50,089 nucleotides of DNA from contig CAZUHD010000002.1 of the NCBI GenBank assembly GCA_964620415.1, forward strand, positions 1-50,089, read 5' to 3'. The notes beneath the pieces were generated by a model. The model was not told where the DNA came from, did not search any database, and worked only from the letters and a program-made list of their open reading frames with translations. Made by a program: the position numbers and the translations under genes. The DNA is from an uncultured Clostridium sp. GTDB taxonomy: Bacteria; Bacillota; Clostridia; TANB77; CAG-508. Positions 19,898-46,615 of the stretch are shown here, one piece after another. Position 1 is the stretch's first letter. Every line of letters starts with the position of its first letter.

Positions 19898-21776
19898 TCA
19901 AGTTGTAAATTTCTTGAACATATACTTAAATACTTTTACAGCTGAAAAAATACATAATATTATAGTAACTAAAGAGAAAAGTATTAACCACACAGGTTCT
20001 GCACTTGCATCTAATGGTCTTGATTTTATAAATAGATAATATACAGTATATACTATTGGTCTTATAAATACTAAATATAAAAATATTGTTATCCATCTTT
20101 TCATAAATCCGTATCTTCTATTTATCTTTCTAAATGTATCAATTACTACTAATATTGGAGAAATCGCTATAACTATTCCAAGTATATATACCCTTAATAA
20201 AAACATGACTAATAATGTAACTTTACAAACAGTAACAAGAAAAGAAGCAATAAGAGCCAATGTATCTAATCCTTGATAATAAGTCAATACAGCTAGCAAT
20301 CCTTCGATACTTGTAGTAAAGCAAAAATCTCCTATTGGTTTTCCAACACGTACAGCATTTCCAGATGTAACATATTCACTTGAATTATATCCCTTAAAGA
20401 AATTATATATATTCTTATAAGCTGCATTAGTATAATGAGCATCATTTCTTAAAATCGCACCTTCACCTTCGCTATTTACCTTCTGTTCTAAAAAGCTATA
20501 AGCATCAACATATATTATAGATGAACTTAAACCATTTTTTATTATACTGTTAAATTTCTTATAAGTTTCATTCATTCCGAAAGCCTCTTTTGCTTATTCC
20601 AATATTTGCATATGTAAGTTTAATCCCCTTAGATCTCCATGTTCCTTCAAGACTATTTAAATAATTTGCATAAGTCGAAGCTTTATCTGTCCAAGGATCA
20701 TTTGTTCCCATCCATATGATAACATTTAATCCATTAGTATTCATATTTGCCATTTGTTCTTCTGCTTTTGGTACACCTGTAACTTTCAACCACTCATACC
20801 CAGCACCATATGATGCTACAAATATCTCTGATCCAGACTGACGTACAAATGTATTACCGCTATTATAGAGTATTTTAGCATTTAATGCTCTACTTGCCAT
20901 TTCATCTACACGCGAGTCTCCTATAAACATATACTGTGGGAATGTAGTCATATTAGATGTATTCCCTGTAACATTAGATAGTCCATTTTCGCTTGTTGGG
21001 AATGTACCTCCCTTTACAAATACAACTATATCTCCTTCATCTAGCTTTTCATTGCTTTCAACACTAATTGGACTAGAAAACATTATATAATCTGATAAAT
21101 ATATTGTTAAATTAATTACAAATGGTAATACACTTAAAATAATAACCCCTACTATCCATTCTTGGATAAATAACTTATCTTTAAGATTTTGTAATACTGT
21201 TTTTCTTAACCATTTCTTACGTTTTTTTTGTTTTTGTTTCTGTACGGTTTCGTCCTGTATGTCTTGTTCTGTTTTTAAAGTAGACTCTACAATAAGAAAT
21301 GCAACATATAGTATCAATACAAGCATTGCTCCTATTGCTAAATAATACGAAGCTTTAAATGCTGATTGAGTCAAATTTTTTATATTTAGCCAAAATGGTA
21401 CTTTGCTTTCATCTCCACTATTTTCTCCATTAGTTTCTCCATCAGTTTCTCCATTAGTTTCTGTATCTTCTGGAGCATCTAAGCTGTTTTCCTCTTCATT
21501 TTCACTATTATCACTTAGTAATTTTATATCCATTAAATCATTATGCCCATATAATATGTCTTCTAACTCTCCTGAAATCAGTGGCAATTTTAATGTTGGA
21601 AGTAATTTTGTACCATCAATTATTACATCATATACTACATTATCGCCCTCTTCTACAGGTTTAAATTTAAGTTCTTCTTTTATGGTGTCGTTTATTGCTA
21701 TTGAATTGTTGAAAATCAAACCACTTAATAAAATAATACAAATTGTTATAAAAAATATTTTTCTTAAATTCTTCAA
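19898..21776 (-). CDS. Membrane-embedded SGNH/GDSL-type hydrolase; track ORFs 20568..21776 and 19898..20575 join through a +1 shift at CGG (20577-20579)
   Basis: The first ORF carries SGNH block I FIGDSRV, block II ASYGAGY and block III IIWMGTNDP. The catalytic block V NDAHYT lies in the second ORF. The junction reads ...GFR(CGG)NE* in frame 0 and ...GF-GMNETYKKFNSIIKNG in frame +1. TTG start with an AAAGGAGAGGAG RBS. TM helices flank the enzyme domain. The acidic ETNGETDGETNGE tract comes from three 12-nt repeats at 21422-21457. Confidence 0.7.
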
Positions 21777-21793
21777 TAGATCTCCTCTCCTTT

Positions 21794-22463
21794 TTAAGTT
21801 ATATTCTCAACATACAATTCATTATTAGTTAAGTCAATACTTACTGAAAGTTTTGTTCGATCGTCAATTTCATTTTCACCATCTTCTGTTTGATTATCTT
21901 CTACTACCTCGGCATCATTTAAAGCAAAAATTATCATTAATCCGATTTTCTTGATTTACTAATTTATATCCTGTATACAAGGCTTTTGTTGCTTTAATTT
22001 GTGGATTTTCATATAAATATTTTTTTAATTCAAATACTAAAGTATTTCTATCTACTCTATTTTCTATTACATCATCTGGCAAGTCTTGAACTTCCAACTC
22101 TATTTTATTAATATCTTCTTCTCTCTCAACTTTTGTTCCATCTTCTTGGACTTCTTCATAAATACCTGCTCGTCTCATTTCTTCTAATTCTTCTTCTGAA
22201 AACATATCTACGCCAGATTCTGGATCAAAATCAAACCCTGTTTCACTTTCTGTTTCATTTTTTATTTCATTTTGATTACTAACTATATTACTATTTACAC
22301 TTGTATTTGCATTTGTTTCATTTGTAATTCCATCTTCTATTGTGCTTTTTCCTATTTCTTCAGTATTTTTAGAATTTAACATTATGAAAAACAATATTAC
22401 AACTAATAATATACTAAGTAATAATATTGAAACCAATATTAAAGCAACTTTTTTAGCTTTCAT
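21794..22463 (-). CDS. Hypothetical membrane-anchored acidic protein; track ORF 21915..22463 is extended by a +1 shift at CGG (21942-21944)
   Basis: N-terminal TM helix and a D/E-rich body. Frame 0 gives ...NQENR(CGG)INDNFCFK*. Frame +1 gives GLMIIFALNDAEVVEDNQTEDGENEIDDRTKLSVSIDLTNNELYVENIT*. That frame ends immediately before the RBS of the next gene and fills an otherwise empty 138-nt gap. Confidence 0.5.
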
Positions 22464-22478
22464 TTTATCCCCTCCTTT

Positions 22479-45232: not shown

Positions 45233-45277
45233 GAAAAAACGAGCAATCCTCACTTCTAAATAAGTTTGCTCGTTTTA
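45233..45277 (-). terminator. Intrinsic terminator after the 379-aa gene
   Basis: The minus strand reads AAAACGAGCAA-20 nt-UUGCUCGUUUU followed by UUC. Arms are plus 45236-45246 and 45267-45277. Confidence 0.65.
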
Positions 45278-45320
45278 TCTACCAATCTTTTAATTAACTG
45301 TTTTTATTTTTTACAACATA

Positions 45321-46460
45321 TTATCTTCCATCATCATCTTCATCACGTTCTTCATATCCTCCACCATAGTAGTCCACTGTAGGATCTTCTTCTTGCTCTT
45401 CTTGCTCTTCTTGCTTTTCTTGCTTTTCTTTTTCTTCTTGCTCTTCTTGCTCTGCTTTTTTTGCTTCTTCTATTTCTTTCTGTTTTCTAGAAAGTTTTTT
45501 TAGTTCATTATAATCAATTCCATATTTTTCTAAAATTCCCTTTTGTAAATTTCCTTGATTAAATCTAGTTCCAAATTTTTCATTAAAAGTTATTGCACTA
45601 ACATTTGGGTCTTCAAGCAAAAACTCTTTTACTTCTTGCCTTTGTTGTTCAAATTCTCCATTCTGATAGTAATCTGCTGGATCGTATTCTTCTGCTGGTT
45701 CTTCTTCTGTTTCCTTCTTGTCTTTATCTTCATTTAATTCTGATTCTTCTGATTCATTTCTTGCTTCATCAGTATTTTCTTCTTTTCCCTGTTCTTGATT
45801 GTCCATTTTCTTAACCTCATTTATTGTTTTATGTCCATTTAATACATTAAATGCATCTTCCATAGTAAGCTGAGCTCCGTCAGCTTGTATATCCTTAGGT
45901 AATTTTCCATTATTTTGTTTTATCTGATCAAGAATTTTTTGTGCAGCATCTTTATTTTCTATTTTCATTTTACCTAGTTCAATTTTTCTTGCAAAACTAA
46001 TTTCTTTCTCACGTTCTTTTGCAAGATCTTTAGTCGTTTTATATAAGGATTTTTGTTTAATACTTGTATCTTTTAGTTTTCTTTTTTCTTCTTGTAATTG
46101 TGCATATAATTGAGACATCGTTCTAACATATTCTTTTTTTATCTCTTTCAAAGTCTTTACATATTTTTTTAATTTTCGATATTCTTGATTTACGTATTTT
46201 TTTGCTCCAATCTTGTCACTTAGTTCATTCATTTCGTTTTTCATTGTTTTTATTTCGTTGTCTGTTTTTCTTAGCATTTTTTCTCTAGTTTCAATTGATT
46301 TCACTATATCTCCAACATTTTTAGAAGATATATCAACCCTACCATTAAGTTCTTTTATTTCCTCCTTTATTTCTTTACTTAGACTACATCCAACTAATTC
46401 TAAATTATCTAAGTTTTTTAAAGTTCTTCTATCTTGTAAATCTGTTAAAAATTGTGGCAT
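45321..46460 (-). CDS. Hypothetical highly charged coiled-coil protein with a poly-E/Q acidic tail, monocistronic
   Basis: 379 aa with its own promoter P1 and terminator. 9-nt repeats (TCTTCTTGC and variants, about 45381-45455) encode EEQEEKEKQEKQEEQEEQEE. No recognised family. Confidence 0.6.
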   Translation of the reverse strand: MPQFLTDLQDRRTLKNLDNLELVGCSLSKEIKEEIKELNGRVDISSKNVGDIVKSIETREKMLRKTDNEIKTMKNEMNELSDKIGAKKYVNQEYRKLKKYVKTLKEIKKEYVRTMSQLYAQLQEEKRKLKDTSIKQKSLYKTTKDLAKEREKEISFARKIELGKMKIENKDAAQKILDQIKQNNGKLPKDIQADGAQLTMEDAFNVLNGHKTINEVKKMDNQEQGKEENTDEARNESEESELNEDKDKKETEEEPAEEYDPADYYQNGEFEQQRQEVKEFLLEDPNVSAITFNEKFGTRFNQGNLQKGILEKYGIDYNELKKLSRKQKEIEEAKKAEQEEQEEKEKQEKQEEQEEQEEDPTVDYYGGGYEERDEDDDGR

Positions 46461-46615
46461 ATTAATCCCTCCTTTTTAATTTTGCTTTTGTTAAGTGCTT
46501 TATGTCTATATTTTACAACAAAATCTGTTATTTGTCAACTTTTGACAAATTTGTATTGCTTTTAATGTATTTTCATTCTTATTTTTCTCGATTGCATTTA
46601 CATAACGCATCATCG
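46407..46615. repeat. Functional copy of the duplicated promoter, leader and 5' end
   Basis: See 44970-45190. Confidence 0.75.
46510..46550 (-). promoter_or_regulatory. Promoter P1 (TTGACA-17-TAAAAT) overlapped by a perfect 9-3-9 palindrome ATTTGTCAA-CTT-TTGACAAAT
   Basis: The -35 is at plus 46533-46538 and the -10 at plus 46510-46515. The palindrome spans 46530-46550 and contains the -35 hexamer. Confidence 0.65.

Follow-up and report, generated by a model that had tools for sequence, protein, structure and literature searches.

A chromosomal type IV secretion locus with multiplied pilin and VirB6-like genes in a lineage of small-genome gut Clostridia

The closest described analogues of the locus analyzed here are the type IV secretion systems (T4SSs) of the ultrasmall Patescibacteria. 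These possess a VirB4 ATPase resembling the MPF_FATA class of mating-pair formation systems, usually adjoining TrsD and VirB3, together with VirB6 and hydrolases encoded downstream, and they carry arrays of 2 to 11 divergent VirB2-like pilins at a locus that is often near dnaA (PMC10633639; PMC12102498). Relaxases are found in ∼3% of patescibacterial genomes, and in Southlakia epibionticum, where the T4SS genes SEML1_0006-0019, including those for pilins, are essential for epibiotic growth, neither a coupling protein nor a relaxase is recognizable (PMC10633639; PMC12102498). This essentiality is independent of ComEC-mediated competence, and Patescibacteria carry a type IV pilus besides the T4SS. 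A 2025 review describes VirB2 pilins as absent from Gram-positive T4SSs except those of Patescibacteria, which are considered unique among monoderms in their potential for conjugative pili. Here we analyze a stretch of 50,089 nucleotides (the window), apparently one whole contig (CAZUHD010000002.1) of a metagenome-assembled genome (MAG) from an uncultured Clostridium sp. (GCA_964620415.1), in which positions 19898-46460 hold a T4SS gene cluster with arrays of pilin and VirB6-like genes.

The locus is a real T4SS gene cluster and a fixed chromosomal part of a large, uncultured lineage of gut Clostridia with small, low-GC genomes. We consider it, with a probability of about 0.6, to be a domesticated, non-self-transferring T4SS that would build a variable pilus or tube through the cell wall for contact-dependent interaction between cells. 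An earlier interpretation made from the nucleotide sequence of the window (the sequence-only reading) had proposed that the locus is a chromosomal T4SS derivative of a monoderm, nonconjugative and variable in its surface parts, and this proposal is supported by conservation among relatives, by tracking of ParAB, and by the local lack of transfer genes. In the literature, no paper describing this T4SS of Clostridia was found.

Machinery, distribution, and origin

VirB4 has intact Walker A (KSGAGKS) and Walker B (IIDEAW) motifs and matches P-loop_TraG (54 bits), AAA_10, DUF87, and the VirB4 structure PDB 4AG5 (E = 4e-24). Against NCBIfam it scores 196 bits to CD1110 and 192 bits to Mbov_0397, both under the equivalog cut-offs, and its matches to CedB and CedD are marginal (18-27 bits; cut-offs, 600-700). 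The VirB3-like protein matches PrgI at 18.1 bits, below the cut-off of 27; its gene is kept in 82 of 86 loci and overlaps, at its 3' end, the start of the TrsD/TraC-like gene, which encodes a homologue of the VirB4 N-domain and was found in every one of the 86.

Eight pilin genes had been claimed, and all eight small genes at 41055-44848 encode a signal peptide and two transmembrane (TM) helices. The Pfam search that the sequence-only reading had proposed identified six of the products as TrbC/VirB2 pilins (PF04956, 35.6-46.2 bits; gathering cut-off, 27.9), and the same six exceed the gathering score for T4SS_pilin (PF18895). The remaining two form a divergent pair (43964-44848), one with a weak T4SS_pilin match and one without a match, and both join the BLAST cluster of the TrbC-like pilins. 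Seven of the eight weakly match Mbov_0395, a "pilin-like" family of Mycoplasma integrative and conjugative elements (ICEs). Within the six TrbC-like pilins, the C-terminal TM hairpin is 46-91% identical, compared with 23-66% for the N-terminal mature segment.

The four paralogs in the VirB6 position each have a signal peptide, an exo-domain of ∼370 amino acids (aa), and 4-5 TM helices and are 24-37% identical among themselves. The family alignment comprised 119 members from related loci, and the TM domains of 30 were scanned: 15 of these matched pLS20_p028 (best E = 4.8e-11), 15 matched MMCAP2_0566, and 13 matched Mbov_0396, all of which are conjugation-system membrane proteins, the last adjoining, by its number, the VirB4 Mbov_0397. 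TrbL or TrbL_4 was weakly matched by three of the 30. Because of these matches to TM proteins of Gram-positive and Mollicute conjugation systems, the VirB6-like family appears to be part of the T4SS machinery and not unrelated to it. Position and topology suggest strict equivalence to VirB6; comparison of the VirB6-like profiles with PrgH of pCF10 (hhalign) gave 2-7% probability, and a profile search of PDB sequences with the family alignment gave no match. The first hairpin of the TM domain scores as T4SS_pilin (PF18895) in 18 of the 30 (best E = 2.4e-7), and VirB6-like proteins may therefore represent a pilin-like module fused to a polytopic domain.

Four VirB6-like genes had been counted previously; these are present, and a fifth, SGNH-fused unit, split by a frameshift, was missed. 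It is cut into two open reading frames (ORFs; 20568-21776 and 19898-20575) by a AATGAATG 4-nucleotide tandem duplication at 20568-20575, the junction reading ...CGG AAT GAA TGA AAC... with AATG duplicated. The SGNH domain lies in the exo-part and spans the junction, and the downstream ORF matches the TM-domain profile of the family (hhalign, 93%; E = 2.7e-7). In four relatives (L002-L005), the corresponding SGNH (464 aa) and TM (235 aa) portions are encoded by separate genes, and relatives also have several further VirB6-like units divided in two.

Downstream of the VirB6-like genes, the repeat protein reported earlier contains ∼11 repeats of 19 aa (57-nucleotide unit), located at 28957-29545, and of the two cell wall hydrolases reported with it, M23 is clear and P60 weak (Table 1). 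The two TM-anchored paralogs contain a 678-nucleotide block (23772-24449 and 25441-26118) that is 100% identical at the DNA level and comprises the C-terminal 216 codons and 29 nucleotides of 3' flank; upstream of it, identity changes abruptly to ∼40%. This pattern suggests recent gene conversion or a cassette with a constant tail and a variable head, and an assembly artifact is possible. The paralogs share a domain with a protein family of the related loci (c5; hhalign, 93%). Searches of PDB sequences with profiles of the TM paralogs and of c5 found nothing, hhalign of c5 with PrgL gave 0.5% probability, and a single-sequence AlphaFold2 (AF2) model of the 484-aa paralog was uninformative (mean predicted local distance difference test [pLDDT], 36.6). 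A design in which a conserved part is joined to a diversified part had been ascribed to three families. It is evident in the pilins and the TM paralogs and weak in the VirB6-like proteins, both halves of which are 21-40% identical.

Profiles for transfer, integration, and replication families were run against all sizeable ORFs of the window, and none of these ORFs contained a type IV coupling protein (T4CP), relaxase, recombinase, or replication family; families VirB7, VirB9, VirB10, VirB11, and VirD4 were not found in any ORF of the locus. VirB4, previously named as the only NTPase, is the sole Walker A protein of the locus. No direct repeat of ≥11 nucleotides is shared by the locus boundaries (no att-like repeats), and no relaxase/T4CP/integrase module adjoins the locus in the window. 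The reported absence of T4CP, relaxase, and integrase extends to relatives, since none was found within 10 kb of virB4 in ∼80 related species; in 85 related loci, the ORFs that were conserved or looked suspicious contained no relaxase family. The only recurrent P-loop proteins near virB4 in relatives are VirB4, MnmE, and an ABC ATPase, and the only consistent one of >350 aa is VirB4. A suspicious 781-aa protein in one relative (L040), considered as a T4CP candidate, is PcrA/UvrD.

A search of one genome per species with VirB4 confirmed 550 of 599 candidate places, and the system is consequently present in at least 550 species-level genomes. In the best 80 of the 550, VirB4 is 74-92% identical, and the records are titled uncultured Clostridia, Clostridiales, Clostridium, Eubacteriales, Bacillota, or "uncultured bacterium"; sample sources in titles include Hadza and Nepal human cohorts, rabbit ("Lapin"), goat ileum, and water-deer reticulum. 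Relatives include Clostridium sp. CAG:452 and a closed MAG chromosome of 1.70 Mb. A protein search found VirB4 relatives of 85-92% identity among the matches listed (at least 120), from hundreds of gut-metagenome contigs, and two VirB4-bearing contigs are ∼1.0 Mb long. The carrier lineage of uncultured gut Clostridia is probably the GTDB order TANB77; Clostridium sp. CAG:452 is presumably a member of TANB77/CAG-508. Kim et al. describe TANB77 as uncultured, compositionally distinct gut Clostridia with reduced genomes, and the order has been linked to immunotherapy response. The "pilin" published for TANB77 belongs to a Tad pilus cluster and is not the present locus.

ORFs were called and clustered in 85 related loci. 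Gene order is constant, namely, pilins, VirB3-like, TrsD-like, VirB4, and VirB6-like, followed by either of two downstream sets. The common set consists of a ∼320-aa TM protein, a large multihydrolase (Glucosaminidase plus C39-like, or M23 plus GDSL, M15, beta-lactamase-like, and lysozyme domains), and a ∼440-aa TM protein, the two TM proteins having a common domain (hhalign, 93%); in the subclade of the window, it is replaced by a repeat protein, a small hydrolase, and a TM protein. Loci contain 1-8 pilin genes (mode, 3), the 8 of the window being the maximum, and VirB6-like genes are single copy in 54 loci and present in 2-5 copies in 25. Among the 49 loci with ≥8 kb of upstream sequence, 28 follow parA-parB, the full run usually being mnmE-mnmG-rsmG-parA-parB-DUF4446, an origin-proximal cluster of Firmicutes, and 12 are preceded by S21/YqeY/M16 genes. 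The synteny comparison suggested earlier therefore revealed both a constant gene order and chromosomal positions adjacent to housekeeping genes.

Median pairwise identity is 81% for VirB4, 81.5% for MnmG, 84% for ParA, 70% for ParB, and 62% for RsmG. VirB4 distances correlate with those of ParA plus ParB (Mantel r = 0.50; P = 0.0002), and the nearest VirB4 neighbor is within the top three ParAB neighbors in 18 of 27 species. Relative to the closest relative (L006), whose locus is also next to proS, identity is 92% for VirB4, 83% for ProRS, 75% for the VirB3-like protein, 70% for the TrsD-like protein, 40-60% for the pilins, 32-40% for the VirB6-like proteins, and 24% for the repeat protein. 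Four contigs from different samples have identical VirB4, and in these, three of five pilins are 79-93% identical, compared with 97-100% for neighboring genes. This is what would be expected of a motor that is vertically inherited and strongly constrained and whose surface parts may be under diversifying pressure; neither an element spreading between species nor a dead remnant would match it.

The locus appears to derive from monoderm conjugation machinery of the MPF_FATA type, as found on clostridial plasmids or ICEs. In a library of 1.84 billion representatives, the clade collapses to essentially one representative (63%), and the next full-length VirB4 matches are at 42%, 39%, and ∼35% or lower. 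Outgroup VirB4s (33-42%) are Firmicutes plasmid, ICE, or chromosomal proteins, the names obtained being Peptostreptococcaceae and Heliorestis. The 42% relative is accompanied by a T4CP (T4SS-DNA_transf), a phage-type integrase, a TraC-like gene, and a P60 hydrolase. Among annotated records, Clostridium botulinum and C. beijerinckii plasmids are closest (VirB4, 41%), and other outgroups are also plasmid-like. Small proteins encoded upstream in the outgroups are weakly pilin-like (19-22 bits) and single copy. The C. botulinum plasmid pINGR16-02E1 (NZ_KT897276.1; L088/L089) is 134 kb long, is typed as "non-mobilizable" by MOB-suite, and also carries an actin-like partition protein, dnaN, Rad52, and a C39 peptidase; there seems to be an uncharacterized family of clostridial plasmid T4SSs without a recognized relaxase. 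Phage or phage-plasmid origin was rejected, as no close relative is present in IMG/VR. The most economical history would be that a clostridial plasmid or ICE T4SS was captured and fixed, that its DNA-processing module was lost or became separate, and that the pilin and VirB6-like genes subsequently multiplied.

Function and alternative readings

Domestication is favored because VirB4 is conserved, positions are linked to housekeeping genes, VirB4 diverges with ParAB, transfer genes are not found nearby, and the outgroups are mobile. We propose the following. (i) VirB4, the VirB3-like protein, and the TrsD-like protein would extract Sec-inserted pilins from the membrane and polymerize them on a VirB6-like platform. 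(ii) The P60, M23, and SGNH hydrolases would open the cell wall, and the two TM-anchored paralogs would serve as VirB8-type scaffolds. (iii) The product would be a pilus or tube at the cell surface, and its exposed parts (pilin N termini, VirB6-like exo-domains, and the repeat protein) would be kept variable. (iv) Its role would be to establish contact with other cells, by attaching to them and exchanging or taking up macromolecules, and not to transfer its own DNA. In epibiotic Patescibacteria, the same role has been proposed for their essential T4SS. Hypervariable pilins would also be candidate strain markers and host-exposed antigens.

Several observations weigh against this proposal. First, some component assignments are tentative: the VirB3 assignment is a weak one, drawn from a low score, topology, and position; the TM paralogs are candidate VirB8-type scaffolds on weak scores, topology, and position; and the four VirB6-like copies of the window matched no Pfam or NCBIfam model. 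The AF2 model of a VirB6-like protein (seven-sequence alignment) has a mediocre pLDDT of 59.6 (70-84 in the TM domain), and Foldseek comparison of this model with the PDB returned nothing with E < 0.27. Second, the absence of T4CP and relaxase covers the 50-kb contig and 10 kb around virB4 in relatives, and in Patescibacteria T4CP homologues are common but far from virB4 (PMC10633639; PMC12102498). Third, the "non-mobilizable" plasmid relatives indicate that this type of T4SS may use relaxases unseen by profiles. Fourth, a correlation of 0.5 is moderate, and some exchange between species is possible. Finally, the frameshifted VirB6-like gene implies that some decay is under way.

A bolder version of the domestication proposal is that the lineage, which is large and prevalent, would depend on a Patescibacteria-like T4SS pilus as a conduit to partner cells, with the pilin and VirB6-like arrays setting partner range. 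We regard this as doubtful at present. If true, this would be a first among Bacillota, namely, a host-dependent (epibiotic or parasitic) lineage relying on an independently domesticated conjugation machine.

The alternative that survives best, and which we nevertheless consider unlikely, is a working conjugation apparatus whose T4CP and relaxase are encoded elsewhere or are unrecognized and which mobilizes chromosomal DNA or other elements in trans. In its favor, plasmids and ICE-like elements with a T4CP carry the nearest relatives, the best matches of VirB4 are to the conjugation families CD1110 and Mbov_0397, T4CP genes are often distant from virB4, and plasmid relatives without a recognized relaxase make novel relaxases plausible. 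However, the ∼80 species lack T4CP, relaxase, and integrase within 10 kb, conservation of VirB4 at the level of housekeeping genes, its co-divergence with ParAB, and the fixed sites beside housekeeping genes are at odds with a transferring element, and pilin arrays with hypervariable surface parts are atypical of Gram-positive conjugation.

Import rather than export may also be envisaged. ComB-type systems have VirB2, VirB3, VirB4, and VirB6 homologues and lack T4CP and relaxase. The locus, which similarly lacks both, might be a DNA or nucleic acid uptake machine, i.e., an import-direction T4SS like Helicobacter ComB or archaeal Ced, supplying nucleotides or genes to an organism whose genome is small. 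The weak CedB and CedD matches of VirB4 point in this direction, as does a 2026 preprint in which host RNA uptake is proposed for a patescibacterium with possible T4SS pili. The Ced matches are only marginal, however, no component of the locus binds or processes DNA, the T4SS of Southlakia is essential independently of ComEC-mediated competence, and uptake alone leaves the hypervariable pilins and exo-domains unexplained. An uptake machine is therefore improbable.

A decaying ICE remnant, deprived of its transfer module and now functionless, is strongly disfavored. In its favor, one VirB6-like gene carries a frameshift, some relatives have VirB6-like units divided between two ORFs, and GC content is a few points above that of the flanks; against it, at least 550 species retain intact ORFs, gene order is conserved, and VirB4 is as conserved as MnmG and ParA and retains its Walker motifs.

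Layout, expression signals, and flanking genes

ORF calling on the window placed 24 ORFs, head to tail on the minus strand, in the locus, compared with about 25 estimated previously, and confirmed their common orientation. GC content of the window is ∼25%; it is 28-32% within 20000-45000 and 20-27% in the flanking housekeeping regions. Features are listed in Table 1.

Table 1. Features of the T4SS locus in the window
Feature	Position	Strand	Basis
P1 promoter-like site, TTGACA-17-TAAAAT, before 379-aa gene	46510..46538	minus	Promoter consensus scan
379-aa acidic, coiled-coil-like protein	45321..46460	minus	ORF and profile scan
Terminator-like hairpin (acgagcaa...ttgctcgt, then T-run) after 379-aa gene	45234..45272	minus	Read directly from sequence; unlisted by consensus scan
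P2 region, TTGACA-17-TAAAAT at 45113-45085	44977..45175	minus	Sequence comparison and promoter scan
Two divergent pilin-like genes, 147 and 145 aa	43964..44848	minus	Signal peptide, 2 TM helices, BLAST cluster
Six TrbC/VirB2-type pilin genes, 124-152 aa	41055..43902	minus	PF04956 and PF18895 above gathering cut-off
Extended -10-like element TGgTACAAT before VirB3-like gene	40949..40957	minus	Read from sequence
VirB3/PrgI-like 118-aa protein, 2-TM hairpin	40555..40911	minus	Weak PrgI match, topology, position
TrsD/TraC-like 414-aa protein, N-terminal TM helix	39318..40562	minus	PF26593 (precomputed Pfam), weak TrsD match
VirB4 ATPase, 647 aa	37430..39373	minus	P-loop_TraG, AAA_10, DUF87, PDB 4AG5
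Four VirB6-position paralogs, 590, 613, 592, and 585 aa	30197..37449	minus	Topology, position, family-level NCBIfam matches
873-aa TM-anchored repeat protein, charged C-terminal half	27562..30183	minus	ORF, topology, repeat analysis
Small NlpC/P60-like cell wall hydrolase	27009..27569	minus	Weak, 21 bits, just below cut-off
Two TM-anchored paralogs, 484 and ∼468 aa	23801..26924	minus	Topology, sequence comparison
M23 peptidase, 426 aa	22479..23759	minus	Clear, 46.5 bits
182-aa TM-anchored acidic protein	21915..22463	minus	ORF and topology
Fifth VirB6-like unit with SGNH hydrolase domain	19898..21776	minus	hhalign 93%, E = 2.7e-7 to VirB6-like profile

The sites P1 and P2, together with the extended -10 element that precedes the gene for the VirB3-like protein, all proposed earlier, were located in the sequence. 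P2 lies in a 76% copy of the P1 region (46402-46600; promoter plus 5' part of the 379-aa gene); the copy has a degenerate ribosome binding site, and its ATG has become ATA. Sequence upstream of the -35 element is also shared by the two regions (e.g., "cgttatgtaaat"), and the pilin array and the 379-aa gene may be units under the same regulator. The 379-aa protein is lineage specific, its sole homologue found being that of L006 (32% identity). Upstream of the extended -10 element, a tandem direct repeat (two copies of aaaaaggttac, at ∼41018-41040) could be an operator.

Of the flanking genes named previously, the AI-2E transporter and proS are both present, but a split AAA-ATPase_like/PDDEXK_9 gene (46714-48392, plus strand) intervenes between the locus and proS (TIGR00409, 413 bits). 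Its domains, AAA-ATPase_like (PF09820) and PDDEXK_9 (PF08011), are on two ORFs overlapping by 16 nucleotides; as they normally occur in one protein, this is probably a single frameshifted gene. It is missing in L006, where proS abuts the homologue of the 379-aa gene, and its presence in the window therefore represents a recent insertion beside the locus. The other flank encodes AI-2E, Bax1-I, an FtsH-like AAA protein, HtpG, and a small RelA/SpoT protein. The FtsH-like protein has only 393 aa (FtsH_ext, AAA, and lid; 16031-17752, minus strand) and is followed by a 173-aa ORF without a Pfam match at the expected place of the M41 protease domain; in the window, FtsH may have been split or have degenerated. 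The window also encodes two WG_beta_rep paralogs (508 and 506 aa; 3198-4724 and 5707-7227) and has an ORF with a SocA/Panacea antitoxin domain (11355-11837), all of them unrelated to the T4SS.

Comparison with known systems

The sequence-only reading had compared the locus with the Rickettsiales vir homolog (rvh) system. The rvh system and the VirB2 arrays of Anaplasma and Bartonella are nonconjugative, as the present locus probably is, with multiplied VirB6 (4-5 copies) and VirB2 paralogs, an expansion thought to give antigenic or host range variation. Paralog expansion is all that is shared, however: rvh is a diderm MPF_T system with VirB7-VirB11 and VirD4 encoded in scattered islands, whereas the present genes form one cluster in which no homologue of an outer membrane core, VirB11, or VirD4 was found. 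The closest analogue, overlooked in that reading, is the T4SS of Patescibacteria.

Similarity to MPF_FATA systems (Prg/Pcf of pCF10, the C. difficile conjugative transposon with CD1110, the Mycoplasma ICE with Mbov_0395-0397, and pLS20) is apparent in the VirB4 matches to CD1110 and Mbov_0397 and in those of the VirB6-like, pilin, and PrgI-like VirB3 proteins, all of them under family cut-offs, and the M23, NlpC/P60, and C39-type hydrolases resemble PrgK and CwlT. Unlike these systems, the present locus lacks T4CP, relaxase, oriT-associated genes, integrase, and a PrgB-type adhesin, is chromosomally fixed and co-diverges with housekeeping genes, and has multiplied pilin and VirB6-like genes. 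The T4SSs of the pINGR16-02E1 family and the C. beijerinckii plasmid have the core genes in the same order (small pilin-like, VirB3-like, TrsD-like, VirB4, large polytopic protein, and C39/M23 hydrolase), but they are on plasmids with tyrosine recombinase, partition, and replication genes and have one weak pilin-like and one VirB6-like gene.

With the Patescibacteria T4SS, several aspects of design are shared: (i) both are chromosomal and lineage-wide in monoderms, with TrsD-like and VirB3-like genes before an MPF_FATA-like virB4; (ii) one or more VirB6-like genes and peptidoglycan hydrolase genes lie downstream; (iii) divergent VirB2-like genes form tandem arrays (2-11 in Patescibacteria and 1-8 here); (iv) neither relaxase nor T4CP adjoins virB4; and (v) the locus is often origin proximal, near dnaA in Patescibacteria and mnmG-rsmG-parAB here. 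In contrast, the present host belongs to the Clostridia (Bacillota), and its VirB6-like proteins are multiplied (up to five) and have large exo-domains. The likeness is one of design, whereas essentiality for epibiotic growth has been shown in Southlakia. If the lineage is TANB77, a conserved Tad pilus is also present, paralleling the combination of type IV pilus and T4SS in Patescibacteria.

We do not claim membership of the present VirB4 in the patescibacterial clade; the relatives found point instead to Firmicutes mobile elements as its source. The nearest VirB4 relatives found, clostridial plasmid and ICE proteins at 41-42% identity, would point to independent domestication. A Patescibacteria-like design (pilin arrays, TrsD, VirB4, and VirB6 near the origin, with no transfer genes close by) is fixed in hundreds of Clostridia species of human and animal guts and provides a concrete lead on the resistance of these abundant organisms to cultivation. 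If both systems arose independently, they would represent convergent domestication of conjugation machinery by small-genome bacteria. The Clostridia locus also provides another system, resident in the gut, for studying what is transported by such machines.

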